A DNA stretch of 64,000 bases, from contig JACPJU010000001.1 in assembly GCA_016187385.1 (NCBI GenBank), positions 337,144-401,143 of the forward strand, written 5' to 3'. This DNA is from Candidatus Aenigmatarchaeota archaeon (GTDB lineage Archaea; Aenigmatarchaeota; Aenigmatarchaeia; CG10238-14; SCSR01). Each line of letters opens with the position of its first letter. Position 1 is the stretch's first letter. The position numbers were made by a program, and so were the translations under genes. A model generated the notes under the pieces. That model searched no databases. It was not told where the DNA came from and saw only the letters and a program-made list of their open reading frames with translations. Below are positions 5,148 to 55,324 of the stretch, in pieces.

Positions 5148-5414
5148 CTAAAGTATTTCCAGAATCTTTTTCCTGCTTTTGTGGCCTTTGACAATCGTCA
5201 CGGAAGATTTTGGCACACTAAAGTAATCGGATATAACTTCAACCAATCGTGAATTGGCCTTCCCTTCCACCGCAGGAGCATTCAGTTTTATCCTGTAGAT
5301 GTTTTCACCCGTCTTTGTTATCTCGAGCTTCTTTGAGTTGGGGATAACCTTCACCGCAATGATCATACAAAACTTATAAATTGATTGCAATTTAAAATAA
5401 GGTAATGGAAGCAT
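5148..5414 (-). CDS. DUF167 (YggU/UPF0235) family protein
   Basis: KVIPNSKK...VKGHKSRKKILEI is typical of DUF167. The likely true start is the internal Met at 5366 (MIIAVKV). Confidence 0.6.
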   Translation of the reverse strand: MLPLPYFKLQSIYKFCMIIAVKVIPNSKKLEITKTGENIYRIKLNAPAVEGKANSRLVEVISDYFSVPKSSVTIVKGHKSRKKILEIL

Positions 5415-7215: not shown

Positions 7216-8446
7216 ATTATTAATGCCAACAAAATACAAAAACTCTATAATGAGACCTTTGTTGTTTTTGATATTATTCGTGCTTCTCAGCGGTTGCGTA
7301 GTTGCGATTGACGAAAACATAACCGACAATGAAACAAGTGTGCACGAAAACGAAACCGAAATTATGGAACAACCACAAGAGCAACCTGCAATCGAAACAC
7401 CGCGCGAATCTCTGAGCACGTTCAGAAATAGTCCCGAAACACCTTCCGAATACGAAAAGAGCCAGTTGTCTGAATGTGGCGATGTGTCGTATTCCACTTT
7501 GCCTGTTGATTTAAACAAAGTAACCGAAATTACGCCATTAGGAAGTCTTGGACCGCCAGGACACACATTTCCAACAGAGCATACATTCATTCATTTCAGT
7601 GCAGGCGGCACCACAACTGAGACCCACCCACTGTACGCACCAGGAGATATCAATATACTTTTAATATCATTCTCCTATGGTGCTACACAGGATCCGATAG
7701 ATTATACAATTTATTTTGCATCATGCAAGAATGTCATGGGATACTACAATCATGTGAAAGAATTGTCTCCCGAATTGCAGAATCTGGTTGACGATGGGAA
7801 ATGTGAATTCCAAGGAGAAACAAAGACGACAAGATGCAACATACAAACATTTGAGCCTGTCAAATCAGGTGCTTTGGTCGGCCGTGTCGGAAGGCTTCAA
7901 GGCAATTTCGATTTCGGAACTTTTGATTTGATGAAGAATCTTACGTTCGCCAATCCTTCCCGCTACGGAATAAGATCCCTGCATATACAATGCCCGTTCG
8001 ATTATTACGATTCAAGTATGAAGGAGAAGTTTTTCAATTTGATAGCGAGAAATGACGCAGACCAATGTGGTGCAGTTGCTCAGGACATTCCAGGAACATT
8101 GAAAGGTAACTGGTTCTATGGAAATTCACGCGCAGACATGGGGACAGACTGGGACAAGTATCTTGCTTTTGTGAATGACAACAAAAACCCTTCAACACAG
8201 GTGATATCCATAGGCGGTGTTTTCACAGACGCGGGCAAGCTTGAATTCACTCCTAAAACATCAGGCTTTGTCAACCGAGAGTTCAGTCATGTTGTTCCCG
8301 GCGGGAATGTCTATTGCTATGAAGGCATCTCTATGAGCGGAAGAGTAATAGTTCAGATGACAAGCGAGACAGAATTGAAGATCGAGCATCAGACTGGAAA
8401 CTGCGGAAGCTTCTCGTTTACCAACCCAACAATTTACAAAAGATAA
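7151..8446 (+). CDS. Secreted/lipoprotein-like hypothetical protein
   Basis: The likely true start is 7223 (MPTKYKNSIMRPLLF) or 7250 (MRPLLF...). A signal peptide with an SGC lipobox-like site follows, then a Cys-containing extracellular domain. Confidence 0.5.
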   Translation: MSDGLRINSTHRIQPFTKGQYRLLMPTKYKNSIMRPLLFLILFVLLSGCVVAIDENITDNETSVHENETEIMEQPQEQPAIETPRESLSTFRNSPETPSEYEKSQLSECGDVSYSTLPVDLNKVTEITPLGSLGPPGHTFPTEHTFIHFSAGGTTTETHPLYAPGDINILLISFSYGATQDPIDYTIYFASCKNVMGYYNHVKELSPELQNLVDDGKCEFQGETKTTRCNIQTFEPVKSGALVGRVGRLQGNFDFGTFDLMKNLTFANPSRYGIRSLHIQCPFDYYDSSMKEKFFNLIARNDADQCGAVAQDIPGTLKGNWFYGNSRADMGTDWDKYLAFVNDNKNPSTQVISIGGVFTDAGKLEFTPKTSGFVNREFSHVVPGGNVYCYEGISMSGRVIVQMTSETELKIEHQTGNCGSFSFTNPTIYKR

Positions 8447-8904
8447 TTAATGAACACTATTGTAAAGTTCAATACGGCAGCAAAGCTCACCCATATTATG
8501 TATGGTATTAGAAGATAAGCCGCTGTCTTGGAGAATTTCCTGAACTCCATTATCGTCAGCAGAATGACCACCCACAATATTATTATTTCGGCCGACGCTA
8601 ACAGCGGATTCCTCAGACCGAAGAACAGCAATGACCAGAGAAGATTCAATGACAACTGTACGCCGAAGAGATACAACGCCTTCTTGGTGTTTTTCTTGCG
8701 GATATCCCATACGAGATACAGTGATACACCCATCATAATGAACAGTATTGTCCATACAGGAGCGAACATCCAGTTGGGCGGACTGAATGAAGGCTTGTTC
8801 AATGCGGCATACCACGTGTCTATCGACGGAGTTGTGAACACAGAACCGAGAAACCCTACGCCCAAGCAGATCAGAATGGATATTGCAAGTTTTGATATGT
8901 TCAT
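8434..8904 (-). CDS. tspO: TspO/MBR tryptophan-rich sensory protein
   Basis: 156 aa, 5 TM, W-rich conserved blocks (WYAALNKPSFSPPNWMFAPVWTILFIMMGVSLYLVW). Confidence 0.85.
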   Translation of the reverse strand: MNISKLAISILICLGVGFLGSVFTTPSIDTWYAALNKPSFSPPNWMFAPVWTILFIMMGVSLYLVWDIRKKNTKKALYLFGVQLSLNLLWSLLFFGLRNPLLASAEIIILWVVILLTIMEFRKFSKTAAYLLIPYIIWVSFAAVLNFTIVFINYLL

Positions 8905-12024: not shown

Positions 12025-12220
12025 TGATATTCTCTGTTTTAGAATTACTGATAATGTCTATCTCTGAGGAATTAACGGCGTGCCATCACTTTTTTGGCCA
12101 TCTTCCACGCGATAGATTTAAATATGTGCTACATAATACATATTAGCGAGTAAGTCCTCCCGAAAGGATGATGGCACCTTGAGGTGTATGGGAGCGAGTA
12201 GGGAAGGGTTCGCATTATTC

Positions 12221-13107: not shown

Positions 13108-15750
13108 TTGATGCATCTTACGAAAGAAGAAGCCAAACTTAAAATCAGAGACCTTGTTCAGAATTATTACAATAACAAGGACAAATTGAGTAAAGACAGT
13201 GAAACCGATACAAGAGTAAAATTTATTGACAGGATGTTTGAAGCTTTGGGATGGGATGTTTTTGGTAGCACTGTATCAGACGAGGTTTTACGTGAAGTAG
13301 GAATACAAGAGAAAGAAGGCAGAAAGAAAAAGGCCGACTACACCTTCAAGATAAACGGCATATCAAGATTCGTAGTAGAAGCAAAGAGCATGGGTGAAAG
13401 TGTTTTCGATCCAGTGTTCATTGTTCAGGCTATTAATTATGCATACAACAAGGCATGCTCTTGGGCCGTGTTGACTAACTTTCACAAACTTGCGATTTAT
13501 TATATTGACAGAAATGTGAACACACCATTTTACAAAATCGATTTTGGCGATATGTCAGCCTTTGATCAGAATTTCGAAATACTATGGTATCTCTCGAAAG
13601 AAAATGTAATTAATAATCTCCTCGAAACAGAAGCGAAAAGAAGAGGACTGAAGAGCGACAAAGTTCCGATAGACAAACAACTTCTGAATGACTTAAAGAT
13701 ATGGAGAGGGCTTTTGTCAAATGACATCAGAAAAAGGTACAAAGATTATGAATCCTACGTGATTGACGAGATAGTCCAGAGGATAATTGATAGGTTAATT
13801 TTCATCAGAAAAACTGAAGACGGGAAGCTGGAAGAACCAAAGCTCGACCAGATAATCAGAAGGCACAATGACAACACCTACGGTGAGATAAAGAAACTTT
13901 TTGCCGAATATAGGGATAAATACGACAGCAAATTATTCGAAGAAGATAGAAAAACACTTCATGAATCCGATAAGATTGAGATATCAAATGATGCCATTGA
14001 AAGTGTGGTTCGTGGCATGTATAGAACAAGAAATATTGACATAGAATACGATTTCTCTGCAATAGATTCGGATATACTTGGAAATATCTACGAACAGTAT
14101 CTCGCTTACGTGCTTTCGCAGACCGAGAAAAAAGTTAAATTGAAAGGCGGTATTTCACATAGGAAGGAACAAGGGATATATTACACACCGACTTACATTG
14201 TAGACTACATCGTGAAAAATACTTTGGGTGAAACCCTTAAGAAAATGAAATTGAAGGATGTAAATAAATTAAGAGTGTTGGATCCGGCATGCGGTTCCGG
14301 TAGTTTCCTAATCAAAGCTTTCGATGTTTTGAACGATTATTATGCAAGAAGTGATGAGAACTATCAGCAGACGAAATTGGATTTGTCTAATGGAACAACA
14401 TTCAGCAAAAAGGTGGATATTATAACAAATAATATTTTCGGTGTTGATTTAGACCCAAAGGCGGTTGAAATCTCACAACTGAACTTATTGTTGAAGATTG
14501 CTGAAAGAGGACAGCGATTGCCAGTATTACAGAAGAATATCAAATGTGGCAACAGTTTAATTGATGATGAATCATTGGCTGGAGACAGAGCATTCAAATG
14601 GGGCATAGAGTTTTCGGATATAACCAAGAATGGTGGATTCGATGTTATTATAGGTAATCCACCTTACGGAGCTGAGCTTAGCGAAGAAGAACAAAATTAT
14701 TTAGATAAATTCTATGACATAGGGTCCACGGATACATCTATTCTTTTCATTAAAAGATCGTTCGAACTTTTAAGAGAAAATGGTAAATTAGCATTTATCG
14801 TTCCGAAAGCGTTATGCTTTGCATCTAATTATGAGGACATTAGAAATTTTATTTGGAATAATTTAGAAACAATAGTAGATTGTGGTAAGGTATGGAAAGA
14901 AGTAAAGTTAGAACAAGTCATATTCATACTTTCTAAAGGTAAAAAATTAGAACAGTATAATTCTTGCCGATTAAGAAATAGTAAAATAGAATATATTGGT
15001 AAAATCAACAAAAGTGATTCAAAACAGTTTGAATTTTTCTTGAATGGTGTTTCATCAAATGATGTAGAATTAGCTAAGAAAATCAAGTCAAAATCTATTA
15101 TGCTCAATGATATCTCAACTAATCAAAGGGGTGCTATGTTACAAAAATTTGTTTCTAAAAAAGGAAGTTTAGAAGTTATCGGCGGTGCACAAATACAAAG
15201 ATTCGGGGTTGTTGGAGTAAAAGGAAAGATAGAACCATCACGCATAGATTCCGAGCAAGCTTATGTAAAAAGCAATTCATTGTTGGTACAGAATATAGTA
15301 GCCCATATAGAAAATCCTACAGACCATATTAAAATAATAGCGTACATTCCTCAAAAGAATTATGTAATTTTAGATACTATCAATCAATTATCTATAAATA
15401 AGGAATACTCACAGAAACTTATTTGGTGCTTCCTAAATTCCAAGCTAATAAATTGGTATGCGTATAGATTTATTTTCGGCAAGGCAATAAGGACGATGCA
15501 TTTTGATAATTCGGTTACATCTCGTTTACCTATTCCTAAAGAAACCAACAGAAAAGTATTGGACGAAATTATCAGCCTATCCAACAAAATACTTTTGTTA
15601 AGCAAACGTTTGAATGAAATTAATACAAAAACAGACGAAATCCAAAAATTGGAAGAGAGCATATGCAAAATACAAAAGAATATAGATTACAAAATTTACG
15701 AACTTTATGGCTTGACTAAAGAAGAAATTGAAATTGTAGAAAACTCTTAA
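13108..15750 (+). CDS. Type IIG restriction-modification enzyme (MmeI-like: N-terminal PD-(D/E)xK endonuclease + gamma-class N6-adenine methyltransferase + TRD)
   Basis: 880 aa. An N-terminal Mrr/HsdR_N-like nuclease (D...VVEAKS) is followed by MTase motifs GIYYTPTYIVDYI, VLDPACGSGSFL (motif I) and VIIGNPPYG (motif IV, NPPY), then a C-terminal target-recognition region. Confidence 0.8.
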   Translation: MMHLTKEEAKLKIRDLVQNYYNNKDKLSKDSETDTRVKFIDRMFEALGWDVFGSTVSDEVLREVGIQEKEGRKKKADYTFKINGISRFVVEAKSMGESVFDPVFIVQAINYAYNKACSWAVLTNFHKLAIYYIDRNVNTPFYKIDFGDMSAFDQNFEILWYLSKENVINNLLETEAKRRGLKSDKVPIDKQLLNDLKIWRGLLSNDIRKRYKDYESYVIDEIVQRIIDRLIFIRKTEDGKLEEPKLDQIIRRHNDNTYGEIKKLFAEYRDKYDSKLFEEDRKTLHESDKIEISNDAIESVVRGMYRTRNIDIEYDFSAIDSDILGNIYEQYLAYVLSQTEKKVKLKGGISHRKEQGIYYTPTYIVDYIVKNTLGETLKKMKLKDVNKLRVLDPACGSGSFLIKAFDVLNDYYARSDENYQQTKLDLSNGTTFSKKVDIITNNIFGVDLDPKAVEISQLNLLLKIAERGQRLPVLQKNIKCGNSLIDDESLAGDRAFKWGIEFSDITKNGGFDVIIGNPPYGAELSEEEQNYLDKFYDIGSTDTSILFIKRSFELLRENGKLAFIVPKALCFASNYEDIRNFIWNNLETIVDCGKVWKEVKLEQVIFILSKGKKLEQYNSCRLRNSKIEYIGKINKSDSKQFEFFLNGVSSNDVELAKKIKSKSIMLNDISTNQRGAMLQKFVSKKGSLEVIGGAQIQRFGVVGVKGKIEPSRIDSEQAYVKSNSLLVQNIVAHIENPTDHIKIIAYIPQKNYVILDTINQLSINKEYSQKLIWCFLNSKLINWYAYRFIFGKAIRTMHFDNSVTSRLPIPKETNRKVLDEIISLSNKILLLSKRLNEINTKTDEIQKLEESICKIQKNIDYKIYELYGLTKEEIEIVENS

Positions 15751-15814
15751 ATATTTTATCACAAAATGGGCAACTTAGTTCTTCGTATTGACCCGACATT
15801 TTTATCAAATAATC

Positions 15815-16429
15815 TCATATTATATAAAGTTTAGTAGAAAAGTCAGCTTCAAAGGTTTCTAAAACACGTTTTTCATTATCTGTTATATTACATTGTTCAC
15901 TTGACTCTTGAAAGAAAAACAGTATAGATTTCTGAAATATTCCAAGTAAAACAGAAAAACTAGCCTTTGTGAGTGCATTTCTTATTTGACTTCCCTTATA
16001 CCCATGATCAAGTTCTATAGCCACTTTAAGCTTATCATCAAAAATAAAAGCAGCATCAGGATTCATAGGCGATTTGAAAAACTGTATACTCCTGAAACTT
16101 TCGGGTATTCGGTTGATACCCTCAACAAAAATATAGTTTCTAGCTATATCTTCTTTAACCCGAAAATCCTCACAGAACCATTTTATAACAAATTTAAAGA
16201 ATCTGTTTCTCAGTTCTGTGTCCCAAGCACCATTTTTAACACCGTCTTTCATAAGATTATCTATTGATTTTATTCTGTCTGGAATAGAATTAATGAAATT
16301 TTCAAACTGTTCATATGAAATAGAATTGTTTTCTTCGGGTTCATATTGATCTGGCATAGTACTATTTATGTAAATCATTATAAAAAAATGGATTATGGCA
16401 AAACAAAGATTGCATGTAAGAACAAGCAA
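15815..16429 (-). CDS. Hypothetical protein
   Basis: 204-aa ORF. The true start is probably the internal Met (MIYINSTMPDQ). Confidence 0.4.
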   Translation of the reverse strand: MLVLTCNLCFAIIHFFIMIYINSTMPDQYEPEENNSISYEQFENFINSIPDRIKSIDNLMKDGVKNGAWDTELRNRFFKFVIKWFCEDFRVKEDIARNYIFVEGINRIPESFRSIQFFKSPMNPDAAFIFDDKLKVAIELDHGYKGSQIRNALTKASFSVLLGIFQKSILFFFQESSEQCNITDNEKRVLETFEADFSTKLYII

Positions 16430-16706
16430 ATATGGAATAAGATTTTATGCGGGTGGGAGAAGGATAGGATTGAAAGTTAAAAATAGAAACTCATTTTTAC
16501 AAGCTGGTTTTGGTCGATATGGACCTTATGCGGCTATGGGAGTAAGACATAAAGGTACATTTGCTGGTGGAAGTGTAGGCACTCTCGGAAAAAAAGTTTG
16601 GGTCGGTCATTATGGCAATAAGTTTAGTGGTTCTATTAATCATAATCTTTCTTCAGGGAGAACTGGTGGAAGACTAAGGGTTAAAAAATTGAAATTTAGG
16701 TTTTGA
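16395..16706 (+). CDS. Glycine-rich basic hypothetical protein
   Basis: 103 aa, rich in Gly/Arg/Lys (GGRRIGLKVKNR...GGSVGTLGKK). Confidence 0.3.
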   Translation: MAKQRLHVRTSKYGIRFYAGGRRIGLKVKNRNSFLQAGFGRYGPYAAMGVRHKGTFAGGSVGTLGKKVWVGHYGNKFSGSINHNLSSGRTGGRLRVKKLKFRF

Positions 16707-16805
16707 CTAACTCTCAAACTTCTTTCTGAAACATTTCAAAATGAAGAAACAGATTTATATCTGTAAAGTACATGTCTTAGTATCCGGAAGTAATCGAATT
16801 ATGAA

Positions 16806-17054
16806 GTGACTTCAATGAAAATTGCTAAAACAGCTCCAGATGCACTAAAGGTTTTATGGGAAGATAAGTTTTTTGTCACTTATAGAAGCCAAAAAGAAAC
16901 AGAGGGTGAATTAACCAAAAGAGAATATAACTTTGGGGATGCCTTACGCAAAGCTTTAGTAGGATCCAAATTTTTATTAGTAACCGGGTCTAAAGGCGAG
17001 AGAAGGTTTATACAAAAATATCCCTATGTAATCGAGGAGAAGCCAGATGAATGA
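16806..17054 (+). CDS. Hypothetical protein (gene 1 of a 3-gene overlapping cassette)
   Basis: 82-aa ORF whose stop overlaps the next start (ATGA, translational coupling). Confidence 0.4.
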   Translation: MTSMKIAKTAPDALKVLWEDKFFVTYRSQKETEGELTKREYNFGDALRKALVGSKFLLVTGSKGERRFIQKYPYVIEEKPDE

Positions 17055-17499
17055 AAAAATACAAAAATCAATAGAAAAAGCAAAAGAAGTAGTTGAGGGG
17101 ATGAAGCTTGAAGAACCCTATAAATCTCTAACTTATTCCAAACTCCTAGAAAAATTCCTTATGGAGGAAGACACATTAATAAAACATCCAAATGTTTCTC
17201 AAGCAGGTCAGATATCATTTGTACAACTTGTTAATAAAATTAAACCTAAAAATAATCATGAAAAAGTTATTTCTATAGGGTATCATTTAATAAAAAATGA
17301 AGGACGAAATTTTTCATATGAAGATATAGATAAATTTTATATGAAAGTTGCTTGGAAACGTCATGTAAATCCAAGTGAGCTTATTCGACAATTAAAACAA
17401 AAAGGTTTTGTAGAAGAATCCGAAAATAAAGAAACCGGTAAAAAAGAATTTAGAATCTTAGAGGACAGTATAAATTTAGTTGAAGAAAGATTAGAATGA
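17047..17499 (+). CDS. Hypothetical protein (gene 2 of the cassette), possible C-terminal wHTH
   Basis: 150 aa. Start and stop overlap both neighbours. Confidence 0.45.
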   Translation: MNEKIQKSIEKAKEVVEGMKLEEPYKSLTYSKLLEKFLMEEDTLIKHPNVSQAGQISFVQLVNKIKPKNNHEKVISIGYHLIKNEGRNFSYEDIDKFYMKVAWKRHVNPSELIRQLKQKGFVEESENKETGKKEFRILEDSINLVEERLE

Positions 17500-18233
17500 A
17501 AACATATTCAGAACTATTAAGAACAGATTTGGAAAATTTAAGAAACATTTTAAAGCAACGTAAAAAATATCCATCGAATAGCTCGTACAAGGAAAGAGAG
17601 CGTAGTGTTAAGTTAGAATTGGATAAAGATACAAAGTCTCTATTGAAATTCTTGAATACCAATTATTCTAGACAATTCTTGGAAGAAAAAAGTAAATTAA
17701 CTGACACGCTCAATAATTTATTGAGCAGTGGGGATATAGATGAGAGATTCGGCAAAATAGATGAAACATTTTCATTATTGAACAGTCTTGATGTAGAAGT
17801 AGGGCCGTTAATAACCGAATCAAGTTTTGAAATACCAGAAATTCCTAATATAGAAGTAAAGCTCGATGTAGAAGAAGCCAAAATGAATCTCAATAATAAT
17901 TCGTTTGTATCTAGTTTAGTAATGTCCAGGAGAGCATATGAAGGAGCTTTATTAGAACTATTTAAAAAAATCGAAGGAAGAGATCCTATAGAACTCAAAT
18001 GTGAAAAATGTGGCAGAGGAGGTTATATGGGTATTATTAAGCTACACAATTGGGCACTTGAAAAAAGGTTTGTTAATGAGAAACTTAAATCTCTAGGATA
18101 TTTAATAAGCGATTTAGGAGCAGGTGGTGCACATCCACCGTTACAAGATTTTCCACGCGATAAGGGCATAGCAAGAGCATCGTTAGCAGCTTTGCTTGCA
18201 GTCCTAGACTTTATATATAAAAAATCCGAATGA
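17496..18233 (+). CDS. Hypothetical protein (gene 3 of the cassette) with CxxC and a Gly-rich C-terminal motif
   Basis: 245 aa, containing KCEKCGRGG and LISDLGAGGAHPP. No confident family assignment. Confidence 0.45.
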   Translation: MKTYSELLRTDLENLRNILKQRKKYPSNSSYKERERSVKLELDKDTKSLLKFLNTNYSRQFLEEKSKLTDTLNNLLSSGDIDERFGKIDETFSLLNSLDVEVGPLITESSFEIPEIPNIEVKLDVEEAKMNLNNNSFVSSLVMSRRAYEGALLELFKKIEGRDPIELKCEKCGRGGYMGIIKLHNWALEKRFVNEKLKSLGYLISDLGAGGAHPPLQDFPRDKGIARASLAALLAVLDFIYKKSE

Positions 18234-27920: not shown

Positions 27921-28046
27921 TTATCTGCTTCTCTTGCGTTTCTTCCTGCAATCCTTGCACAGCCACAGGTAACCGGTCTTGAATAGTTTACCGACAGTTT
28001 TGACATTGCCCTTGCAACCATCACAGTTAATGTGAATAATACCCAC
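27921..28046 (-). CDS. Possible small zinc-ribbon protein (41 aa, GTG start)
   Basis: Translation is (M)GIIHINCDGCKGNVKTVGKLFKTGYLWLCKDCRKKRKRSR. It overlaps the 3' end of the LAGLIDADG gene. Low confidence. Confidence 0.2.
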   Translation of the reverse strand: MGIIHINCDGCKGNVKTVGKLFKTGYLWLCKDCRKKRKRSR

Positions 28047-28836
28047 CCTCTATAAATTTCATGAGTTCCAAAAGTCTGTCCTGTTTCCTTTTTATCGAAA
28101 ACCCTAAATTAACAAAGAAGTTTGTCAGACTTTCTGCTTTAATATACAAATTATAGTATGTACCATTCGGATTGAATGAAGACCCCCCAACTTTATATTT
28201 ATTAGCTTTAATTCCAAACTCTTCCAAAAGTCGTTTACACACATCTATTAATTGTTCATTTTTGTTAATAATCTTTATTTGATGACCATTGCAATTTTTA
28301 CGTTTTGTTATAGTACCTTCACTATCAAAAATACCCATCAGAAAACCACGCTTCATATCTTTACTCATTTTAAGTGCTTCTGTTGTGGGAAAATTTTTAA
28401 GGAATATATGCAAACTTTTTGAGTGAACAGTTGCGTTATAAAATCCTCTTTTGTCAAAAAAAGTTGTGCAATGACCACCTATTAAATTAATATGTTTTTC
28501 AAAAAATTCTACAAAATCTTTATCTTTAGCCTTTAATCTTACATAAAAATGTTCTGCACCATTTCTTTCTTTCCAAGAAGATAGATTTCCATCACCAAAA
28601 ACAACCCCAATAGTATAACCTAGCGAAAACGAAGGTTCCAGATTAATAAATTTCAAATCTTTAAAGGGTTTTTTAATTTTCAATCTAACAGCTTTAGTTC
28701 TTATGCCGCTTAATGTTCTTTGAGAAAATAAATCCTTCAAATCTCCAAAGCGATAAGATGGATATGCTTGTTTTAATCTCATTATTTCATTTGTGGTCCA
28801 TCTAGAAATTTTATCTTTCACAAATACTAATTTCAA
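28027..28836 (-). CDS. Free-standing LAGLIDADG homing endonuclease (double-motif)
   Basis: 269 aa with two LAGLIDADG motifs: IGVVFGDGNL and LMGIFDSEGTI. Confidence 0.75.
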   Translation of the reverse strand: MKLVFVKDKISRWTTNEIMRLKQAYPSYRFGDLKDLFSQRTLSGIRTKAVRLKIKKPFKDLKFINLEPSFSLGYTIGVVFGDGNLSSWKERNGAEHFYVRLKAKDKDFVEFFEKHINLIGGHCTTFFDKRGFYNATVHSKSLHIFLKNFPTTEALKMSKDMKRGFLMGIFDSEGTITKRKNCNGHQIKIINKNEQLIDVCKRLLEEFGIKANKYKVGGSSFNPNGTYYNLYIKAESLTNFFVNLGFSIKRKQDRLLELMKFIEGGYYSH

Positions 28837-30705: not shown

Positions 30706-31947
30706 TTATTTTACGCTTTCTATAAATGGTCCAAAATCCGGATCAGAACGAAGTGCTTCTTTAACATCGTTTTCTTCAAGATCGCGTCGTGTATCAGGCT
30801 TAGAATAAGCACCTAGAACTAATTGGATCCTTCCATCAAAATCAATACCATTTTCATTGTAAATGTACTCAGGTTTCAAAACATTTGTGTATGCTATTAT
30901 AGTTGCTCCTAATTTTTTACCAATCTCTTCCCTTCTTCTAACTCCTCTTCTAAATCCTGTGTAAACCCCATCATAAGGATGATCACTGTCGATTATCTGA
31001 TAATTCCTGTAGAATAATGGCTTTGTCGCCTTTATTCCTATTAACGATCTTGTTTTCAACATCTTTACTCCCTGTATCTCTTCATCTGTTCTTGCCACCT
31101 CGGAGAGTCTCTTAACCCATATCTCGTCGTTGTCTGCATAAAGCCTTCTGCCGTTTTCATCAAGTTTTCTCATCAAAGATAAAAGTACAGTTTCGTAATA
31201 AGCTCCTGTAAGGTTTCTACTATATGCGTTTAAAACATTCGTTCTGGCTCTTTCTATACTTTCCCTATTTTTATGTTCATAACTTGGAAATTCGCCATCA
31301 TCAGATACTTCGTCATCATCAAGTACTACATAATTTGGAGGTACCACTCCTTCTCTTGAAAGTATTAATCCTCCCCTTTCAAGATCTATTTCCGCTTTTC
31401 TTAGAATCCTTTCCAAATATCTGCGTTCTGAAGTTGACATTGCGTCTAATGCTATATGAGAAGAATTTTCAAAACTTTGTGCGATTTTGTTGTATCTACC
31501 ATTTCCCTTTATTTCACCGGCAATTATTTCAGGGTCGCCAAAATTTTCTCGGATCCACATCGGCAGTTGTGAGCCTGTAAAATATCCTTGTCCTGTTAAT
31601 GCGTTAATATTAATTTGTTCTGTATCAAAAACCTCATCGCAATGTGGAACTGCAGCAGTTGTATTTGAATCATGCATTGCAAGTATCCCCATTATTATGC
31701 CTGTCTCAGTCGGACTTATTTCATCAGTCCTTAATAATATGGACCCTCCTATCCTCATCGCGTGCTCAATGTGATAAAATCTAGATAATCTCGATTGTAT
31801 TCCTTTGCTAGCTCTATAAGTCGAGAATGTAGGTCCCCATAAATTAACTCCTTTAAGTCTTTCTATTTCCCGAGGATAAGGTCTAGGTAAACTGGTGACA
31901 GATTCTCTTCTCGTGACTAATCTTGAACCTAATGTTATTTCATTCAT
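30706..31947 (-). CDS. Hypothetical protein, co-operonic partner of the NrdD-like gene
   Basis: 413 aa. Its start overlaps the stop of the upstream gene (ATGA). No recognisable motifs: no Walker A, no radical-SAM CxxxCxxC, no glycyl-radical motif. Confidence 0.5.
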   Translation of the reverse strand: MNEITLGSRLVTRRESVTSLPRPYPREIERLKGVNLWGPTFSTYRASKGIQSRLSRFYHIEHAMRIGGSILLRTDEISPTETGIIMGILAMHDSNTTAAVPHCDEVFDTEQININALTGQGYFTGSQLPMWIRENFGDPEIIAGEIKGNGRYNKIAQSFENSSHIALDAMSTSERRYLERILRKAEIDLERGGLILSREGVVPPNYVVLDDDEVSDDGEFPSYEHKNRESIERARTNVLNAYSRNLTGAYYETVLLSLMRKLDENGRRLYADNDEIWVKRLSEVARTDEEIQGVKMLKTRSLIGIKATKPLFYRNYQIIDSDHPYDGVYTGFRRGVRRREEIGKKLGATIIAYTNVLKPEYIYNENGIDFDGRIQLVLGAYSKPDTRRDLEENDVKEALRSDPDFGPFIESVK

Positions 31948-33869
31948 GTTAACACAAAATACCCTATGTCGGATTTACTAACTAGCTTTAAAATCTCTCC
32001 CAATTCCCTATCCTTTTTGATAATACTTTGATGACCAAAATCGTGTAATGCATGGAATTTTTTTTCTATCCGAATCTTTTCTTTAAGATCTATTCCAGAA
32101 TTTTCAGCAACTGATGACCCAGATGTATAGCATGGATTTTCCTTATCGCCACTGTAAATGACTTTGTCACCGAAGTCGTGTATATCTTTTTGGGCAAATC
32201 TTTCAAGTACAGGTTTGAATATGTGTTCACATACCCCAACTTTAAATGGCATCTTCTCATGTTCTACAGATTTTTTCATATGGTTCAGAACTTTCAAAGT
32301 AAAGTCTACAGATTCTTCATTTTCGTGCAATTGATATCCTACTAATTTTTTAGCAACTTCATTCAAGCCAGCCGTGCATACAACATAAGTTGACTTGTCC
32401 AAATCATAATATCTTTCACCACCGAATTTTGAGAAAATGAAAGATGGTGATGTATGTGATTTACCACCTATATATTCAGCCGATGCTGTTAGCACATCTA
32501 AACAAGCACCAATGCTTTTATCAAGGCTTTCAAAAAATTCAGATTCTCCTTTTGTTTGCCACGCTATGCGTGGTAGATTGATAGTAGTTGTTTGACAATT
32601 ACCTTTTCCAAACGAATTATCACTAATTGGATTGTCTATTCTTATTACTTCATGAAAATATGATGCATCTTTTTGCCAGGACGGCACTAGGTTAGCAAAT
32701 AAGGGTCTTGTTAACTTGTCTAGATTTTTTTCTATAGATTCTGTTGCTTCAGTTTTATCCCATCCTTTATACATGTTAAAAACTAGGCGCGGCTGTTTTA
32801 GCTTTTCTATCGCTTCCAAGAATGCTTTAGTTATAGATTGAGATTCCGATTCAAAATCACCGTAAGTACCAACGACTTTTCCTTTAGGTCCTATGGCTGG
32901 TTGTTTTTGTAAAGAGCTTGGAATTGCCAAGTCGAAACAGTAATAAAGTGCTGTACCTTGCATTGTCGATGAAATGTGGGTGTAGATATTCGCCAGATTT
33001 TCCATCATTTCTTTTAATTGAATAACATTTAGTCCAGAAATGAACGGTGCAAGGAAAACATTTAGATGATTAAACGCTTGCGGGCCAGCAATGTCTTTTT
33101 TTGACATCTCTAGTATGGTTCTCAGATAATTTAAGACATCGTAAAGATTCTTTGGAGGTTGTTGTTCAGATAACCCATTCTTTAAGATTGGTCTTAAATC
33201 ATGTAATATAGAAACTGGTTTAGGTATGCCAATATTATAAATGTCTATTCCCCCCTCGTTGTACATTTTTATCGACGATTCTAATTTTTTCTCTTTCATA
33301 ATATTTTGCAATGAATAGTCTCCAAAAATTCTCGTGGAAGATAATTTTTCTACTGATGAATCGAATATTTTTTTCTCTTCAAGTAAGATTCGTAAAATTA
33401 AAGACTCTAGACTACTAATGCTAATCCCCCCATAAACTTCATTTGAAATTTTTGATAAAACAGATTCTACAAGCCAAACTGGTATTCCTATGTCCATGAG
33501 TTTTTGGCGTAATTGGCTAGTTTTGAATTCTTCTGGCAATCCTTCCGCATTAACAATATGAAATGACGAATCTCCAATACTATCTTGTTTTGAAACAGAA
33601 CTAAGAACATCAAAATTTATTTTAAAATTTTTTAATACGTAAAGTTTTTTTTGCCTACCGTTGTCTATTTTAACGTCAGATTTTAGTATGTCTGCCTTTT
33701 CAAGCTCGTTCAGGTATTTGTGTGCTGTGGAAAAACTAAGTTTAAGCTTGTTTCTAACATCTGTAATGGAGTTTTCCCCTTCTTTTGCGATTAACTCGAC
33801 TATTTTGAATTTTCCTTCGCTATCTAAAGCCTTGAATTTTGAAATTGCATCCCGATTATTCTCTGTCAT
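31944..33869 (-). CDS. Class III ribonucleotide reductase (NrdD)-like protein lacking the glycyl-radical / Zn-ribbon C-terminal region, with an N-terminal winged HTH
   Basis: 641 aa. An N-terminal wHTH (ITDVRNKLKLSFSTAHKYLNELEKADIL) is followed by segments that I recall aligning with E. coli NrdD: LAPFISGLN vs LAPFV, and GNCQTTTINLPRIAWQTKGESEFFESL vs GVISLNLPRIALEAKGDEATFWKLL. No RVxGY glycyl-radical motif and no CxxC...CxxC zinc site are present. Confidence 0.5.
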   Translation of the reverse strand: MTENNRDAISKFKALDSEGKFKIVELIAKEGENSITDVRNKLKLSFSTAHKYLNELEKADILKSDVKIDNGRQKKLYVLKNFKINFDVLSSVSKQDSIGDSSFHIVNAEGLPEEFKTSQLRQKLMDIGIPVWLVESVLSKISNEVYGGISISSLESLILRILLEEKKIFDSSVEKLSSTRIFGDYSLQNIMKEKKLESSIKMYNEGGIDIYNIGIPKPVSILHDLRPILKNGLSEQQPPKNLYDVLNYLRTILEMSKKDIAGPQAFNHLNVFLAPFISGLNVIQLKEMMENLANIYTHISSTMQGTALYYCFDLAIPSSLQKQPAIGPKGKVVGTYGDFESESQSITKAFLEAIEKLKQPRLVFNMYKGWDKTEATESIEKNLDKLTRPLFANLVPSWQKDASYFHEVIRIDNPISDNSFGKGNCQTTTINLPRIAWQTKGESEFFESLDKSIGACLDVLTASAEYIGGKSHTSPSFIFSKFGGERYYDLDKSTYVVCTAGLNEVAKKLVGYQLHENEESVDFTLKVLNHMKKSVEHEKMPFKVGVCEHIFKPVLERFAQKDIHDFGDKVIYSGDKENPCYTSGSSVAENSGIDLKEKIRIEKKFHALHDFGHQSIIKKDRELGEILKLVSKSDIGYFVLT

Positions 33870-33966
33870 AATATCCTATTAAGTTTATGTTGAATGCTAA
33901 TATTTAAAAATGTGATATCAAGGATTTAAATGTATCATAATTTGTGATATATGTCAATAATTAATC

Positions 33967-35106
33967 CTATTTAAAATTTCTAAAAGCGGTTCGACTTTTT
34001 GTTACCGTGTATACATGAGGCAGTCTATTTTGAATGTGAACATCATCAGGTATAAATCTGGTCATGCCGGCAGAACCTAGTTTTGGCTTTTGGCTTAAAT
34101 AGTCATAAACTACAGTCATACCAAGTTCTAATCCTTTAATTATAGTTGACGGATCGATTATAGGCTGTTGTTCTAGATACCATAATAGTGTTCCACCCAA
34201 AACATCACCACATCCTATTGTACTTAATTCGCCAGTTCTGATATAAGGTAAACCAGAACAAACCGTTCTTACCACATCCTGACCTTCTTTGTGGTATATG
34301 CTTATTTCAGTTGCTCTTGTGGTGATTATTGCCATGAGATTCTTGTGTGACGCCATTAACCGTTGTGGACCAGTGTGTATATTTCCTGTTAGTAAGTAAG
34401 TTTCGTCTTGGTTGCTTCTTAGTATGTCGATTTTCGATAGCTGACTCTCTACAAGTTTTGGGTTTTTACGCATATCAGGACCAGGATCGTAATATATAAT
34501 AGTGTTTTCACCCCCCTGTTTGTAACTTCTTATAGCATTAATGATTGTAGGTTGTGCTTCGACAAACCCCCCAGTTACGCTGATTATTCCTAAGTAGCCG
34601 ATGTTAGCAAGTCTATTAAGAAGGGAAACTACAACTTTCGGATCTCTAAAGTCATAATATGCTCTGCCTTCTCCAGTGTTTTCATAAAGTGATTCTAACC
34701 GATGATGTCTAGCTTCGATACGGTCTCGTACTCTCTTGTTGGATATAGATGATATATCTTCTATCGGTGCTGGAACTTTAAATGAGGTGGTTGGTGTATC
34801 AGATTTGTGTAACACAGGGGTCGTGTATCTTAATGATCCGAGAATATCGTGACTACTGTGTCCTTGAAATTCAGCTTCGGTTCTATTTTTATAGAAATCA
34901 GGACCTACAGATGATACTAAATAAGCTCCTCCTCCTTTTCCATATGCCCTACAAAGTCTGTCAATAGTAAGGGCTTGGTTAAGGCCACATCCTCCCCATT
35001 TTGGTGTAAATCCAATTTCTTGAGCGCTTTCATCAAAAAACAAGTCGAATGCTATCGGACCGAAAACAGCTATATGTCTGTGTGGTTCATAGTCTGTTTT
35101 TGACAT
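33967..35106 (-). CDS. PfkB-family carbohydrate/nucleoside kinase
   Basis: 379 aa with an N-terminal GG motif (KWGGCGLNQA) and a C-terminal anion-hole motif (STIGCGDVLGG ~ DTxGAGD). Confidence 0.55.
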   Translation of the reverse strand: MSKTDYEPHRHIAVFGPIAFDLFFDESAQEIGFTPKWGGCGLNQALTIDRLCRAYGKGGGAYLVSSVGPDFYKNRTEAEFQGHSSHDILGSLRYTTPVLHKSDTPTTSFKVPAPIEDISSISNKRVRDRIEARHHRLESLYENTGEGRAYYDFRDPKVVVSLLNRLANIGYLGIISVTGGFVEAQPTIINAIRSYKQGGENTIIYYDPGPDMRKNPKLVESQLSKIDILRSNQDETYLLTGNIHTGPQRLMASHKNLMAIITTRATEISIYHKEGQDVVRTVCSGLPYIRTGELSTIGCGDVLGGTLLWYLEQQPIIDPSTIIKGLELGMTVVYDYLSQKPKLGSAGMTRFIPDDVHIQNRLPHVYTVTKSRTAFRNFK

Positions 35107-35379
35107 GGAATTATATTAAATACTAACATTTAAAAATCTGTAGCTTAGGTATCATAACTCTCGATATATCATAATTTATGATATTCTATATCAAGAAGAG
35201 AGATATATAAATACTCCTGAGAAATTATCTGTTAGGTGATGAATGATGTTAGAAAACTTGCAACAAACTGATTTCACACTTGTAAACTCAAGGTGTGAAG
35301 GAGGGGAATAAATATGATGAATATAGTCTTTGACTAATGCGTATTATAGTAGTTTCTTTCTCCTTTTGGCCGATCAACC

Positions 35380-35437: not shown

Positions 35438-35636
35438 AATTATTTTTATGGTGCTAATATGAGCGACAAAACATGGGCAAAATTAGTGTTAACAAAATAT
35501 AGAAATAGTAAAGGCAGTAAGAAGTGATTACTGTCGGCGCCTTCTCTCCCGCTTTCTTCTTCTCATTCTCTGTTTTCTGGTTTTCTTCCTGCGCCTTCTT
35601 TTCTCCCCGGCTGCCATTTACATCACTTGAATTTTC

Positions 35637-36764: not shown

Positions 36765-37349
36765 TCAATTCCTTAAATTAGAACCTTTCTCCTTAATAAA
36801 TTTCAAAATTTTGTTTACAACTTGGTCCACTGTCAGATAAGAAGTATCTATGACCAAGTCAGCTTCCCTTTTCTGGTCAAGATAATCGAATCCATACAAT
36901 TTCTTGAATAGATGCCTTTCCATGTTCTCCCTTTCTCCCACTTTTTTCAGGGCATCCTCCACAGAAATTCCGTCCCTTCTGGATGTTCTTTCAGCACGTT
37001 TTTCCAATGATGCACCAATCCATATCTTACAGTCGGATAATTCTTTTAAAAAATGAATGGACAGTGTCCCTTCCAACACTATATTTCCCTTTTCGGCTTT
37101 TTCTATCTGCAATTTGTCGATATGTTCATGCAATGTTTTGCTTGCGCCTTCTTTTGTCTTCAAATATGACAGAGCAGCCTTTGTTTCATTCCCTTTCTTA
37201 CCCGACAATTTCTTGAAGTATTCGCCGGGAGAAAAATATTTTATTTTGAGTTTTTTAGCCAGTACTTTTGCGATAGTTGATCCGCCAGAACCTGGCGGGC
37301 TTGACACCACAACTACTAATTTTTTCATATTATGAATTGTCGCATTCAA
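36765..37349 (-). CDS. cmk: Archaeal-type cytidylate (CMP) kinase
   Basis: 194 aa with the P-loop VVVSSPPGSGGSTIAKVLAKKL. It sits in the conserved position next to rps10/tuf. Confidence 0.6.
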   Translation of the reverse strand: MNATIHNMKKLVVVVSSPPGSGGSTIAKVLAKKLKIKYFSPGEYFKKLSGKKGNETKAALSYLKTKEGASKTLHEHIDKLQIEKAEKGNIVLEGTLSIHFLKELSDCKIWIGASLEKRAERTSRRDGISVEDALKKVGERENMERHLFKKLYGFDYLDQKREADLVIDTSYLTVDQVVNKILKFIKEKGSNLRN

Positions 37350-53347: not shown

Positions 53348-53457
53348 GTTAAATTAGCGCCCTGGGCGGGATTTGAACCCGCGTTTTCTGATGAGGTTCA
53401 CTCATTCGCAGCCGTGACAGGGCTTTGCACATTAGTATTGTATGCTAGGCCGCTACA
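53348..53457 (-). tRNA. tRNA-Asp (GTC) with a roughly 21-37 nt non-canonical insert/intron in the 3' half (near position 45/46)
   Basis: Reverse complement: GCTCTGG-TG-GTGT-AGCGGCCTAGC-ATAC ... GCC-CTGTCAC-GGC (anticodon loop with GTC) ... GCGGG-TTCAAAT-CCCGC-CCAGGGC-G. The acceptor, D and T arms fold canonically. The total length is 110 nt, and the extra GAATGAG-TGAAC-CTCATCAG hairpin lies between the anticodon arm and the T arm. Confidence 0.6.
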
Positions 53458-53608
53458 CCACCAGAGCTTGAAGAATAATAAGAAATGCTTGTTTATAAAT
53501 TTGTGAAAAGTATAGTAAAGAAAGCAAACTAAAGAATTTCTAGTCATTATCAGCTATAGTTTTGCTTGTAATACTTTAATCTGGTTTAGATTCTCTTCTT
53601 CCTAAAAC

Positions 53609-54346: not shown

Positions 54347-54496
54347 AAATAAATGACGACGCAGTGGAATTCCCGTGGTTTCCCACAGTACAACCCACTA
54401 CGCTGGACCGTTTCACTTCTGTGTTCAAATGGGAACAGGTGGTACCAGTCCGCTTTGGTCGTCAATAAAATTAAGTGTCATCTAATGTTTTTAAAG

Positions 54497-55207: not shown

Positions 55208-55324
55208 TCCCCGTTGAGAGATTCGAACTCTCGACCTATCGCTTTCTATATGAGCAGTTCCTGGCTGATAAGCACATTTAGTACTCAACTACAGGCGACC
55301 GCTCTACCGCTGAGCTAAACGGGG
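55208..55324 (-). tRNA. tRNA-Tyr (GTA) with a canonical 45-nt intron after position 37
   Basis: Reverse complement: CCCCGTT-TA-GCTC-AGCGGTA-GAGC-G-GTCGC-CTGTAG | intron TTGAGTACTAAATGTGCTTATCAGCCAGGAACTGCTCATATAGAA | A-GCGAT-AGGTC-GAGAG-TTCGAAT-CTCTC-AACGGGG-A. All stems pair. Confidence 0.8.

Follow-up and report, generated by a model that had tools for sequence, protein, structure and literature searches.

A winged-helix homologue of class III ribonucleotide reductase that lacks catalytic residues is a putative transcription factor in a Candidatus Aenigmatarchaeota gene cluster

The 64,000-nucleotide window analysed here, from a Candidatus Aenigmatarchaeota archaeon, encodes a 641-aa protein that resembles a class III ribonucleotide reductase (RNR; NrdD) and begins with a winged helix (wHTH), and the question is what such a protein can do if the parts needed for catalysis are missing. 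Its gene (31944–33869, minus strand) encodes, in this order, the wHTH, an ATP-cone-like segment and a dead NrdD barrel, and the product is proposed here to be a transcription factor. The stop codon of this gene shares ATGA with the start of a 413-aa open reading frame (ORF) on the same strand (30706–31947). The initial annotation had given both ORFs and their overlap exactly, and had described a two-gene unit next to an unrelated core gene for a kinase. Synteny and a fusion with the 413-aa family (see below) place that kinase gene (33967–35106, minus strand, 379 aa) in the same conserved cluster, as the first of three genes.

A class III reductase homologue without catalytic residues

The similarity of the 641-aa protein to NrdD is real. 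Its core matched PF13597 (NRDD) with an E value of 7e-40 over profile positions 33–504 of 562, and TIGR02487 over positions 22–522 of 581, in the latter case with 151.9 bits, below the NrdD equivalog cutoff of 326.35. A Foldseek search with an AF2 model of the protein (pLDDT 89.2) retrieved the NrdDs of P. copri, S. thermophilus, T4 and T. maritima, with E values of 1e-22 to 1e-15; the class III RNR entries matched were 8p2c, 9dca, 1h78 and 4col. Thus, according to both Pfam and Foldseek, the protein contains a 10-stranded α/β barrel homologous to that of class III RNR, and the resemblance first noticed from the motifs LAPF (residues 273–276) and INLPRIA (within TINLPRIA, residues 429–436) is not coincidental. 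The ORF extends about 205 aa beyond the second motif rather than the ~130 aa originally counted. As in class III NrdD, the barrel (31947–33317, minus strand; motif definitions from PMC11226230) retains the scaffold motifs NxFxAP, YGDFExE, NLPR, RFAxxD and GGH and is preceded by an ATP-cone-like module, and the protein is presumed to be a dimer. In contrast to NrdD, it has an extra wHTH at the N-terminus, and its catalytic parts are gone.

The roles of the NrdD motifs and residues were taken from PMC11226230, according to which the radical cysteines of PcNrdD are the thiyl-radical C416 on the finger loop and a second one, C171, on β1. In the 641-aa protein, the finger-loop cysteine expected of a barrel of this kind is replaced by E407 and the β1 cysteine by S220, and DIYN (residues 209–212) stands in place of HxHD. 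Throughout the family of short NrdD-like proteins to which it belongs, the finger-loop position is occupied by E, D or G and the β1 position by S, T, A, N or K. As for the substrate-binding motifs, the NxN flap columns hold E or S, and the PAE loop, which binds phosphate, is replaced by D/T-F-K. In the allosteric specificity site, loop 2 (RGGQ..F) is deleted and the β-hairpin region is shortened, and two polar positions of the s-site helix are kept (E287 and E290 of the query), their mapping to PcNrdD 'Glu290' being ambiguous. The absence of a glycyl-radical motif (RxxGY) and of a CxxC...CxxC zinc ribbon, reported earlier for the 641-aa protein, proved to be a property of the whole family; the protein stops at ...IGYFVLT, the very point where the Zn ribbon starts in true NrdDs. 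Altogether, both cysteines, HxHD, the NxN flap, the PAE loop, loop 2, the Zn ribbon and the glycyl-radical domain have been lost in all 10–15 short-family members, whereas 22/22 true NrdDs in that alignment retain them.

The overall NrdD barrel has nevertheless been kept under selection, as if the protein could still be an active reductase, with partner proteins as the source of its radical or its reducing power. The residue losses effectively refute this, and we give it next to no credence: there is neither a thiyl cysteine nor a second one, nothing of HxHD, the NxN flap or the PAE loop is left for the NTP, the glycyl-radical domain is absent, and neither partner, one an HD hydrolase and the other a ribokinase-like kinase, is a radical generator. 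No nrdG activase was recognised beside the gene, and no second RNR was found within the 64-kb window. That the source is a metagenome-assembled genome could suggest, on the other hand, a truncated or frameshifted nrdD pseudogene. Such an artefact is refuted by the conservation of the C-terminal end, which is the same, at lengths of 595–656 aa, in at least 15 independent assemblies with 23–63% identity, and can be dismissed with near certainty; moreover, no frame of the window encodes a glycyl-radical tail that a frameshift might have cut off, and the gene that overlaps the 3' end is itself conserved. As the catalytic losses are common to at least 15 DPANN relatives, an assembly error does not account for them, and the protein, although a genuine homologue of NrdD, cannot be a working reductase.

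The winged helix and the operator-like palindromes

The predicted DNA-binding domain comprises residues 1–85 (33615–33869, minus strand) and has FSTAHKYL as its recognition helix. The winged helix noted earlier was corroborated by a match of Pfam HTH_24 to residues 21–63 (E 6e-6); Foldseek matched the domain to CzrA, SrnR, CadC and Phr, and PADLOC to the wHTH of Csa3/CasR. It is ArsR-like. Residues F46, S47, T48, K51, Y52 and L53 are invariant in 15 family members, and no part of the family is better conserved than the recognition helix, which is the same in Aenigmarchaeota, Woesearchaeota and Nanobdellati. Contrary to what had been assumed, the wHTH does not stand in place of an ATP-cone but precedes a degenerate ATP-cone-like segment (residues about 100–180; 33330–33572, minus strand), which appears in the AF2 model as a β-hairpin followed by three helices and is devoid of the K/R residues that bind phosphate. 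PF03477 (ATP-cone) gave weak matches (E 0.003–0.09) to 4/10 family segments and none to the segment of the window's own protein.

A 17-bp palindrome, TATCAYAAATTATGATA (TATCA-N7-TGATA), occurs in the 64 kb twice, as compared to 0.11 expected occurrences, once in each cluster promoter and at matching distances from the start codons. One operator-like copy, TATCACAAATTATGATA (33933–33949), lies 64 to 80 bases upstream of the NrdD-like ATG, in a promoter that also contains extra TGATA/TATCA half-sites at 33913–33920. The other, TATCATAAATTATGATA (35167–35183), lies 61 to 77 bases upstream of the PfkB-like ATG and is accompanied by extra TGATA half-sites starting at 35193 and 35154, whose 12/17-nt spacing repeats that of the NrdD-like promoter; an additional half-site is located 17 nt downstream of TATCAYAAATTATGATA. 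Neither palindrome is assigned to a strand. Each promoter has the TATA-like box TTTTTAAAT on the minus strand (33902–33910 and 35128–35136, respectively), recognised by sequence only. The palindrome is AT-rich, as is the genome, and shuffling controls argue against chance.

An identical palindrome is present upstream of the orthologous cluster in locus L001, and degenerate copies are present in L003, whereas clusters without an NrdD-like gene (L009, L010 and L006) do not have it; L006 contains a TrmB gene and has a different palindrome in common with L009. In 12 family promoters, sites with at least 9/10 matching positions occur at 10 per kb versus 0.2 per kb in the background, and 9 of the 12 promoters have at least one. 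The palindrome is thus enriched about 50-fold and recurs in promoters of orthologous and distant family members. No shared operator was found in the Bathyarchaeia-type loci described below. From these sequence patterns we infer that the palindrome is probably the specific operator to which the NrdD-like protein binds.

Partner proteins and gene neighbourhoods

The 413-aa partner has a single Cys and no radical-SAM CxxxCxxC, and so, as recognised from the start, it is no NrdG. The sequence itself had no match in Pfam, NCBIfam or the PDB; PF01966 (HD) did not match the single sequence or the family up to E 10, and a PDB profile search with the family found no sequence match. The partner had been thought to have no recognisable domain, but a domain became apparent once the protein was modelled: it adopts a SAMHD1-type HD-domain fold with C-terminal lobes typical of dNTPases. 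Residues H59, H92-D93 and D168 (H...HD...D), as well as R45, H102 and E160, are invariant in eight family members, and the order and spacing of the former, rather than a residue-level superposition, suggest that they correspond to the SAMHD1 metal ligands. The model thus points to a homologue of SAMHD1/EF1143-type HD-domain (d)NTP triphosphohydrolases with predicted activity of that kind. It differs from SAMHD1, EF1143 and dGTPase in having no detectable sequence similarity to them even with a profile, and in the tiny size of its family, which has six relatives, patchily distributed, among 1.84 billion representatives. That the partner should contribute some new radical or redox chemistry is therefore not supported, for it is a hydrolase homologue, and in the NrdD-like protein no cysteine is left to carry a thiyl radical.

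The 379-aa product of the first gene matched PF00294 (PfkB) below the cutoff (21.4 bits versus a gathering threshold of 25.8; E 1.7e-4). It carries GGCGLNQA at residue 38 and GCGD at residue 298, in agreement with the GG-x-G-x-NQA and DT-x-GAGD motifs of the PfkB/ribokinase family, and a search of the PDB with the profile of its own family found adenosine kinases and ribokinases (E 4.5e-4 to 0.01), the two motifs being aligned. By these motifs and matches, it is a divergent PfkB/ribokinase-like kinase.

The NrdD-like gene is followed by an HD family gene in the window and in L001, L003, L008, L025 and L027, and it is preceded by the PfkB-like gene wherever sequence is available (the window, L001, L003 and L025). 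The kinase adjoins the HD family in eight relatives and is fused to it in one (P0126). Such a fusion makes the formation of a complex plausible, and, as the stop/start overlap suggests co-translation and stoichiometric production, and SAMHD1 itself binds nucleic acids (title of PDB entry 8d9j), the dead NrdD might be part of a kinase/HD enzyme complex, as a subunit with a structural or allosteric role, the wHTH then being a module for protein interaction or nucleic-acid tethering and not a sequence-specific regulator. However, the kinase/HD pair exists without an NrdD-like gene in L006, L009 and L010, so that the NrdD-like protein is dispensable for their chemistry, and in L006 it is the gene for a TrmB regulator that lies directly upstream of the fused kinase/HD gene. 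Conversely, distant members (L005 and L012–L019), which are not beside PfkB-like or HD genes but mostly beside genes of unknown proteins, keep the wHTH and a promoter palindrome. A purely non-transcriptional function is, in our opinion, unlikely.

The cluster is surrounded by housekeeping genes (MetAP, ogg, CMP kinase and EF-1a). LAGLIDADG genes are located nearby in the window, as well as in L010. From its neighbours the cluster had been judged chromosomal and not island-borne. The judgement is a weak one, as the flanking genes differ in every relative examined. This variability, the tiny and patchy HD family, the LAGLIDADG genes and a CARF-HEPN Csx1-like gene (E 8e-93) that follows the PfkB/HD pair in L010 would all fit an anti-viral or conflict module, in which the SAMHD1-like dNTPase and the kinase deplete or reshape dNTP pools on infection, and the dead NrdD serves as a sensor or switch, e.g., a decoy for an RNR-targeting viral factor, its DNA binding keeping the module silent. 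Such a role, which is compatible with the identity of the protein as a transcription factor and differs in its biology, appears decidedly improbable given the housekeeping neighbours; neither an integrase or transposase nor the boundary of a repeat was seen, PADLOC had no match for the kinase-like or HD proteins, and the genes next to a sister family are plain metabolic ones.

That sister group, from Bathyarchaeia/Hecatellales, consists of proteins with DUF7347, an ATP-cone and a dead NrdD, encoded beside pyrB-pyrI in three of the four loci that were examined; in the fourth, a class II RNR gene (nrdJ) is nearby. These proteins, too, lack both cysteines and the glycine motif, and they group with the short family in a neighbour-joining tree, weakly (40% bootstrap). 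Unlike the NrdD-like protein of the window, they have a recognisable ATP-cone, a Zn ribbon, a length of 735–772 aa, another HTH (DUF7347, in proteins of the DUF7347/ArsR type) and other neighbours. Databases label dead NrdD homologues of this kind inconsistently, as 'anaerobic RNR' or 'wHTH/ArsR regulator', and those of the DUF7347 type as 'ArsR family regulator' or 'anaerobic RNR'.

A proposed regulator of nucleotide turnover

The 641-aa protein is probably an RNR-derived pseudoenzyme that acts as a one-component transcription factor and regulates a nucleotide-turnover module. A radical-free, repurposed regulator was among the initial suggestions, and the family-wide loss of motifs, the invariant recognition helix and the palindromes support it well; for nucleotide sensing, which was part of the same suggestion, the argument is circumstantial and comes from the gene neighbourhood. 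The protein would dimerise as NrdDs do and, through its two wHTH domains, occupy the palindrome immediately upstream of the TATA boxes, controlling its own transcription and that of the co-translated HD dNTPase and the PfkB-like kinase. Sensing would fall to the dead barrel, to the ATP-cone remnant or to both. A nucleotide or a nucleoside-derived metabolite is the probable effector, and expression of the (d)NTP/nucleoside module would therefore follow the state of the nucleotide pool. Residue conservation does not support a nucleotide effector, because the barrel no longer has its canonical NTP-binding elements and the cone lacks the usual basic residues.

Bacterial NrdR, a repressor of nrd operons of about 150 aa that acts at palindromic boxes in their promoters, combines a Zn ribbon with an ATP-cone. 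The NrdD-like protein follows the same concept, an allosteric piece of RNR joined to a DNA-binding module, but it is not an NrdR: it has a wHTH and a degenerate cone, below Pfam detection in the query, instead of a Zn ribbon and a functional ATP-cone, and its 641 aa still include the complete catalytic barrel (about 450 aa). Its operator is different as well, and its targets here would be a kinase and a dNTPase, not nrd genes. The M45/UL45 proteins of cytomegaloviruses are catalytically inactive homologues of the class I RNR subunit R1 that inhibit RIPK via protein-protein interaction. They, too, are RNR large subunits without catalytic residues re-used non-enzymatically; in contrast to the NrdD-like protein, they are class I, viral and free of a DNA-binding domain. 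Enzyme-derived one-component regulators include the ROK repressors Mlc/NagC, MocR/GabR, TrmB and PyrR, with which the NrdD-like protein shares an HTH joined to a (pseudo)enzyme sensor fold and, as proposed here, autoregulation through palindromic operators; to our knowledge, none of them uses the barrel of an RNR or a glycyl-radical enzyme. Likewise, we found no account in the searchable literature of any homologue of class III RNR or of a glycyl-radical enzyme that is catalytically dead and has been turned into a DNA-binding regulator.

A broader reading, which we offer tentatively as the less probable one, is that HTH-fused dead NrdDs in general are RNR-derived transcription factors of archaea, a counterpart of NrdR, which sense (d)NTP or ATP/dATP through allosteric remnants. 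The family would then comprise two types, the short one of DPANN and the DUF7347 plus ATP-cone one of Bathyarchaeia/Hecatellales, with nucleotide synthesis (pyrBI, nrdJ) and dNTP turnover (the PfkB-like kinase and the SAMHD1-like dNTPase) as targets.

Where annotation pipelines call these proteins NrdD, an anaerobic RNR will be wrongly attributed to DPANN and Bathyarchaeia genomes, and this distorts inferences on their nucleotide autonomy and host dependence. According to the structural model, the HD family forms a tiny branch of SAMHD1-like dNTPases that is orphan at the sequence level, paired with a ribokinase-like kinase and fused to it in one lineage, and this combination of enzymes has been undescribed. 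Additionally, the transcriptional control of dNTP and pyrimidine supply in archaea is poorly understood, and a predicted regulator, a candidate operator and candidate target genes have now been defined.

A class III reductase fold without its catalytic apparatus

The 641-aa protein called on the minus strand at 31944-33869 is labelled by NCBI, for the exact sequence from a Candidatus Aenigmarchaeota MAG, only as a 'winged helix-turn-helix transcriptional regulator'. Pfam placed HTH_24 at residues 21-63 and returned an NRDD match (E 7e-40) ending at profile position 504 of 562; the TIGR02487 score was 152 bits versus a cutoff of 326. The AlphaFold model (68 sequences, pLDDT 89.2) was matched by Foldseek to the class III RNRs of P. 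copri, S. thermophilus, T4 and T. maritima (E 1e-22 to 1e-15), and its N-terminus to ArsR-type repressors. The NrdD-like core proposed in the initial annotation is thus borne out by both the Pfam and the structural matches.

We aligned the protein with 22 bona fide NrdDs and read the alignment against the functional map of P. copri NrdD, on which HxHD binds the substrate triphosphate, and which includes an NxN flap, a phosphate-binding loop (577-581), loop 2 (304-311), Cys171, Cys416 and Gly711 (PMC11226230). HxHD is replaced by DIYN, S220 and E407 stand where NrdDs have two cysteines, loop 2 (RGGQ..F) is deleted, and the NxN and P-A-E loop were absent from the aligned protein. The chain stops at the last barrel strand, so that, as was noted from the sequence at the outset, it has neither a Zn ribbon nor a glycyl-radical domain. 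The scaffold motifs NxFxAP, YGDFExE, NLPR, RFAxxD and GGH are retained. The protein (hereafter, the dead NrdD) cannot be a reductase.

A sequencing error that removed a normal radical C-terminus had been raised as a possible explanation. Independent assemblies from Aenigmarchaeota, Woesearchaeota and Nanobdellati encode proteins of 595-656 aa (23-63% identity) that share these losses and stop at the same C-terminal point, and no second RNR, NrdJ or stand-alone glycyl-radical tail was found within the window. By sequence comparison, the protein is therefore a conserved pseudoenzyme and not a truncation artefact; family conservation likewise excludes a pseudogene or an assembly artefact. A weak ATP-cone-region match at 48.5-48.9 kb was spurious and corresponded to RNA polymerase subunit A'.

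The N-terminal winged helix, thought to stand in place of the usual ATP-cone, was confirmed, but a simple replacement was not: at residues about 100-180 the model contains a beta-hairpin and three helices, and the equivalent segment gave weak ATP-cone matches (E 0.003-0.09) in 4 of 10 relatives. We call this segment a predicted ATP-cone-like module, degenerate because the basic residues that hold the nucleotide are missing.

The HD-domain partner and the three-gene cluster

The start codon of the 413-aa gene downstream (30706-31947, minus strand) overlaps the preceding TGA as ATGA, and NCBI labels the product of this gene 'hypothetical'. A word-index homology search with that product returned only the protein itself, and the profile version one protein more; among 1.84 billion representatives scanned exhaustively with HMMER, only six relatives were found. 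The family profile had no match among PDB sequences or in Pfam, and a metagenome scan had none either. The early statement that the partner has no recognisable domain therefore holds for sequence methods, but not for predicted structure: a model built from seven sequences (pLDDT 82.8, pTM 0.83) resembled, along its whole length, BT4208, Aquifex O67745 and SAMHD1 (Foldseek probability 1.0, TM up to 0.58). R45, H59, H92-D93, H102, E160 and D168 are invariant in the family alignment. As modelled, the partner is a remote SAMHD1/EF1143-type HD-domain enzyme with the H..HD..D constellation intact. This fold rules out the partner as a radical or redox protein, and an active reductase with a partner-supplied radical, one of the readings first offered, is excluded by the residue losses in the dead NrdD.

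The 'kinase' upstream, previously taken for an unrelated neighbour, belongs to the same cluster. The 379-aa product of this gene (33967-35106, minus strand) is a very divergent PfkB/ribokinase-like protein (Pfam E 1.7e-4) with GGCGLNQA and GCGD motifs, and its family profile matched ribokinases and adenosine kinases (E 4.5e-4 to 0.01). The order PfkB-like, dead NrdD, HD is found in the window and at loci L001/L002, L003/L004 and L025 of other genomes, and dead NrdD is followed by HD in L008 and L027, both on truncated contigs. Moreover, the PfkB-like and HD genes are adjacent without an NrdD-like gene in L009 and L010/L011, and in L006/L007 they are fused into one 738-aa protein, directly downstream of a gene for a TrmB-family regulator; in L006, this conventional regulator gene lies beside the pair instead of an NrdD-like gene. 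The kinase/HD pair is therefore the functional core, and the NrdD-like protein an add-on. The dead NrdD could instead serve a kinase/HD complex as a subunit that does not bind DNA, but the fit is poor, since the pair and the NrdD-like protein each occur without the other.

The neighbours of the distant DPANN members were unrelated to the HD and PfkB-like profiles and mostly had no known Pfam content, the exceptions being a weak MazG match and, at three loci of Woesearchaeota/Nanobdellati, a tandem-CBS gene divergent from the dead-NrdD gene (L013 4202-4753, L014 4293-4829 and L016 134-679, all minus strand). The L013 copy matched Pfam CBS at E 7e-26, and the other two were assigned by their resemblance in sequence. 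Adenosyl compounds are common ligands of CBS pairs.

Several other features of the window were recorded. Three genes upstream of the cluster, and on its strand, there is a further gene of nucleotide metabolism, cytidylate-kinase-like (36765-37349, minus strand), whose proximity may be a coincidence. MetAP and an unannotated membrane-protein ORF flank a free-standing LAGLIDADG_3 homing-endonuclease-like gene (28027-28836, minus strand; E 1.5e-16), and a LAGLIDADG gene is also found in L010, about 600 nt upstream of the PfkB-like/HD pair. An extremely Arg/Lys-rich 29-aa ORF, MAAGEKRRRRKKTRKQRMRRRKRERRRRQ (35528-35617, minus strand), starts about 20 nt past the ogg stop codon and may represent an unannotated gene for an eL41-like ribosomal protein; between it and the first gene of the cluster lie about 420 nt that appear to be non-coding. 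Rfam matched a DUF3800-X RNA (12144-12215, plus strand; 75.8 bits), 5S rRNA (54351-54466, minus strand) and two tRNAs (55208-55324 and 53358-53467, minus strand), the latter spanning 110-117 nt and probably containing introns; ARAGORN found no tRNA in the window. The segment at 14000-18000 has a GC content of 0.32 versus about 0.38-0.45 elsewhere, and may be foreign or otherwise unusual.

A candidate operator in the cluster promoters

The palindrome TATCAYAAATTATGATA, of the form TATCA-N7-TGATA, occurs at 33933-33949, 64 to 80 bases ahead of the NrdD-like start codon, and at 35167-35183, 61 to 77 bases ahead of the PfkB-like one. Both promoters carry an extra TGATA half-site starting 17 nt past the TGATA arm of the palindrome, followed by a TATA-like box, TTTTTAAAT. 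Within the 64 kb, the motif is confined to these two promoters (0.11 expected). L001, with a protein of 56% identity, carries two copies in tandem in the orthologous promoter, one of which is identical, and L003 carries two degenerate ones. Related sites of the form TATCAC...GTGATA were also found in promoters of distant members (L005, L013-L016 and L019). Sites with 9 or more of the 10 positions matched occur at 10 per kb in 12 family promoters versus 0.2 per kb in the background, an about 50-fold enrichment, and 9 of the 12 promoters have at least one. Additionally, the recognition helix of the winged helix, FST..KYL, is invariant in 15/15 members, exceeding the barrel in conservation. Taken together, the palindromes in the cluster promoters, their enrichment in relatives and the invariant recognition helix are strong comparative evidence that the dead NrdD would be an autoregulated, dimeric, sequence-specific transcription factor, whose binding to the operator we infer.

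The motif was not found in the clusters without an NrdD-like gene (L009, L010 and L006). Upstream of such clusters, L006 (about 5188-5207) and L009 (about 77-96) share a different palindrome, GTTGT-N10-ACAAC, which in L006 precedes the TrmB-family gene just before the PfkB-like::HD fusion. The different palindrome and the TrmB gene suggest a regulator swap.

Neither the cluster nor the long spacer upstream of it contained an RNA element in tRNA and Rfam scans. In relatives, small Zn-ribbon ORFs of 45-69 aa (CPxC...C..C) flank the cluster (L001 4472-4648 and 9373-9531, L003 4297-4571 and L008 2663-2872, all minus strand), each of the two in L001 behind an operator copy; no homologue of them was found in the window. 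Stand-alone winged-helix proteins of 116-120 aa with the dead-NrdD-family recognition helix LSFSTTHKYL are encoded in Micrarchaeota and Aenigmarchaeota MAGs (L018 4986-5336 and L020 2469-2831).

Effector, sister group and standing of the family

Sensing is the weak point of the case. In the dead NrdD the s-site beta-hairpin is shortened and the canonical NTP site is gone; on the s-site helix only two polar positions are left, with an uncertain mapping. We could not place the s-site Mg ligand exactly; residue 'Glu290' of the paper is off the SEQRES register. The short DPANN family has a conserved polar set around what was the finger loop: Q399, R410, Q426 and H613 in 15/15 members, and Y404 and E548 in the nine closer members only. 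This set is compatible with a remodelled pocket.

A sister group in Bathyarchaeia/Hecatellales combines DUF7347, an ATP-cone and a dead NrdD that has kept the Zn ribbon and lost the two Cys as well as the Gly (L021 7001-10139, L022 7001-11005, L023 5001-8951 and L024 1901-7460). In L021-L023, pyrB lies tail-to-tail with the dead-NrdD gene, with pyrI after pyrB in L022 and L023, and in L024 a class II RNR gene (nrdJ-like, with TSCPD) lies about 1 kb away. In these loci we found no convincing operator shared by the promoter of the regulator and those of pyrB/pyrI or nrdJ. The DPANN and Bathyarchaeia dead forms group together in an NJ tree with 40% bootstrap, possibly through long-branch attraction, and may have a single origin. 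On context, a nucleotide-type effector may be proposed, because the regulated genes encode a dNTPase-fold enzyme and a ribokinase-like kinase, and the sister group lies beside pyrB-pyrI or near a class II RNR.

A defence role by dNTP depletion is possible. The HD family is tiny and patchy, the flanking genes vary among genomes, and in L010 a Csx1/Csm6-like CARF-HEPN gene (7309-8739, plus strand; PADLOC E 8e-93) directly follows the pair that lacks an NrdD-like gene. However, PADLOC gave no defence-system match for the kinase-like and HD proteins, and the genes associated with the sister family are plainly metabolic.

As for the regulatory reading of the dead NrdD, its nearest likenesses in role are NrdR and the one-component regulators that join an HTH to a pseudoenzyme. 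To our knowledge, cytomegalovirus M45/UL45 is the only precedent for an RNR pseudoenzyme; it is of class I and does not bind DNA. The searchable literature yielded no account of HTH-fused dead NrdDs. We regard the dead NrdD as a probable enzyme-derived transcription factor, to whose cluster a remote new branch of SAMHD1-like enzymes belongs. Although homologous to NrdD, it lacks the functional hallmarks of that family, and it should therefore be neither annotated nor filed as an RNR.
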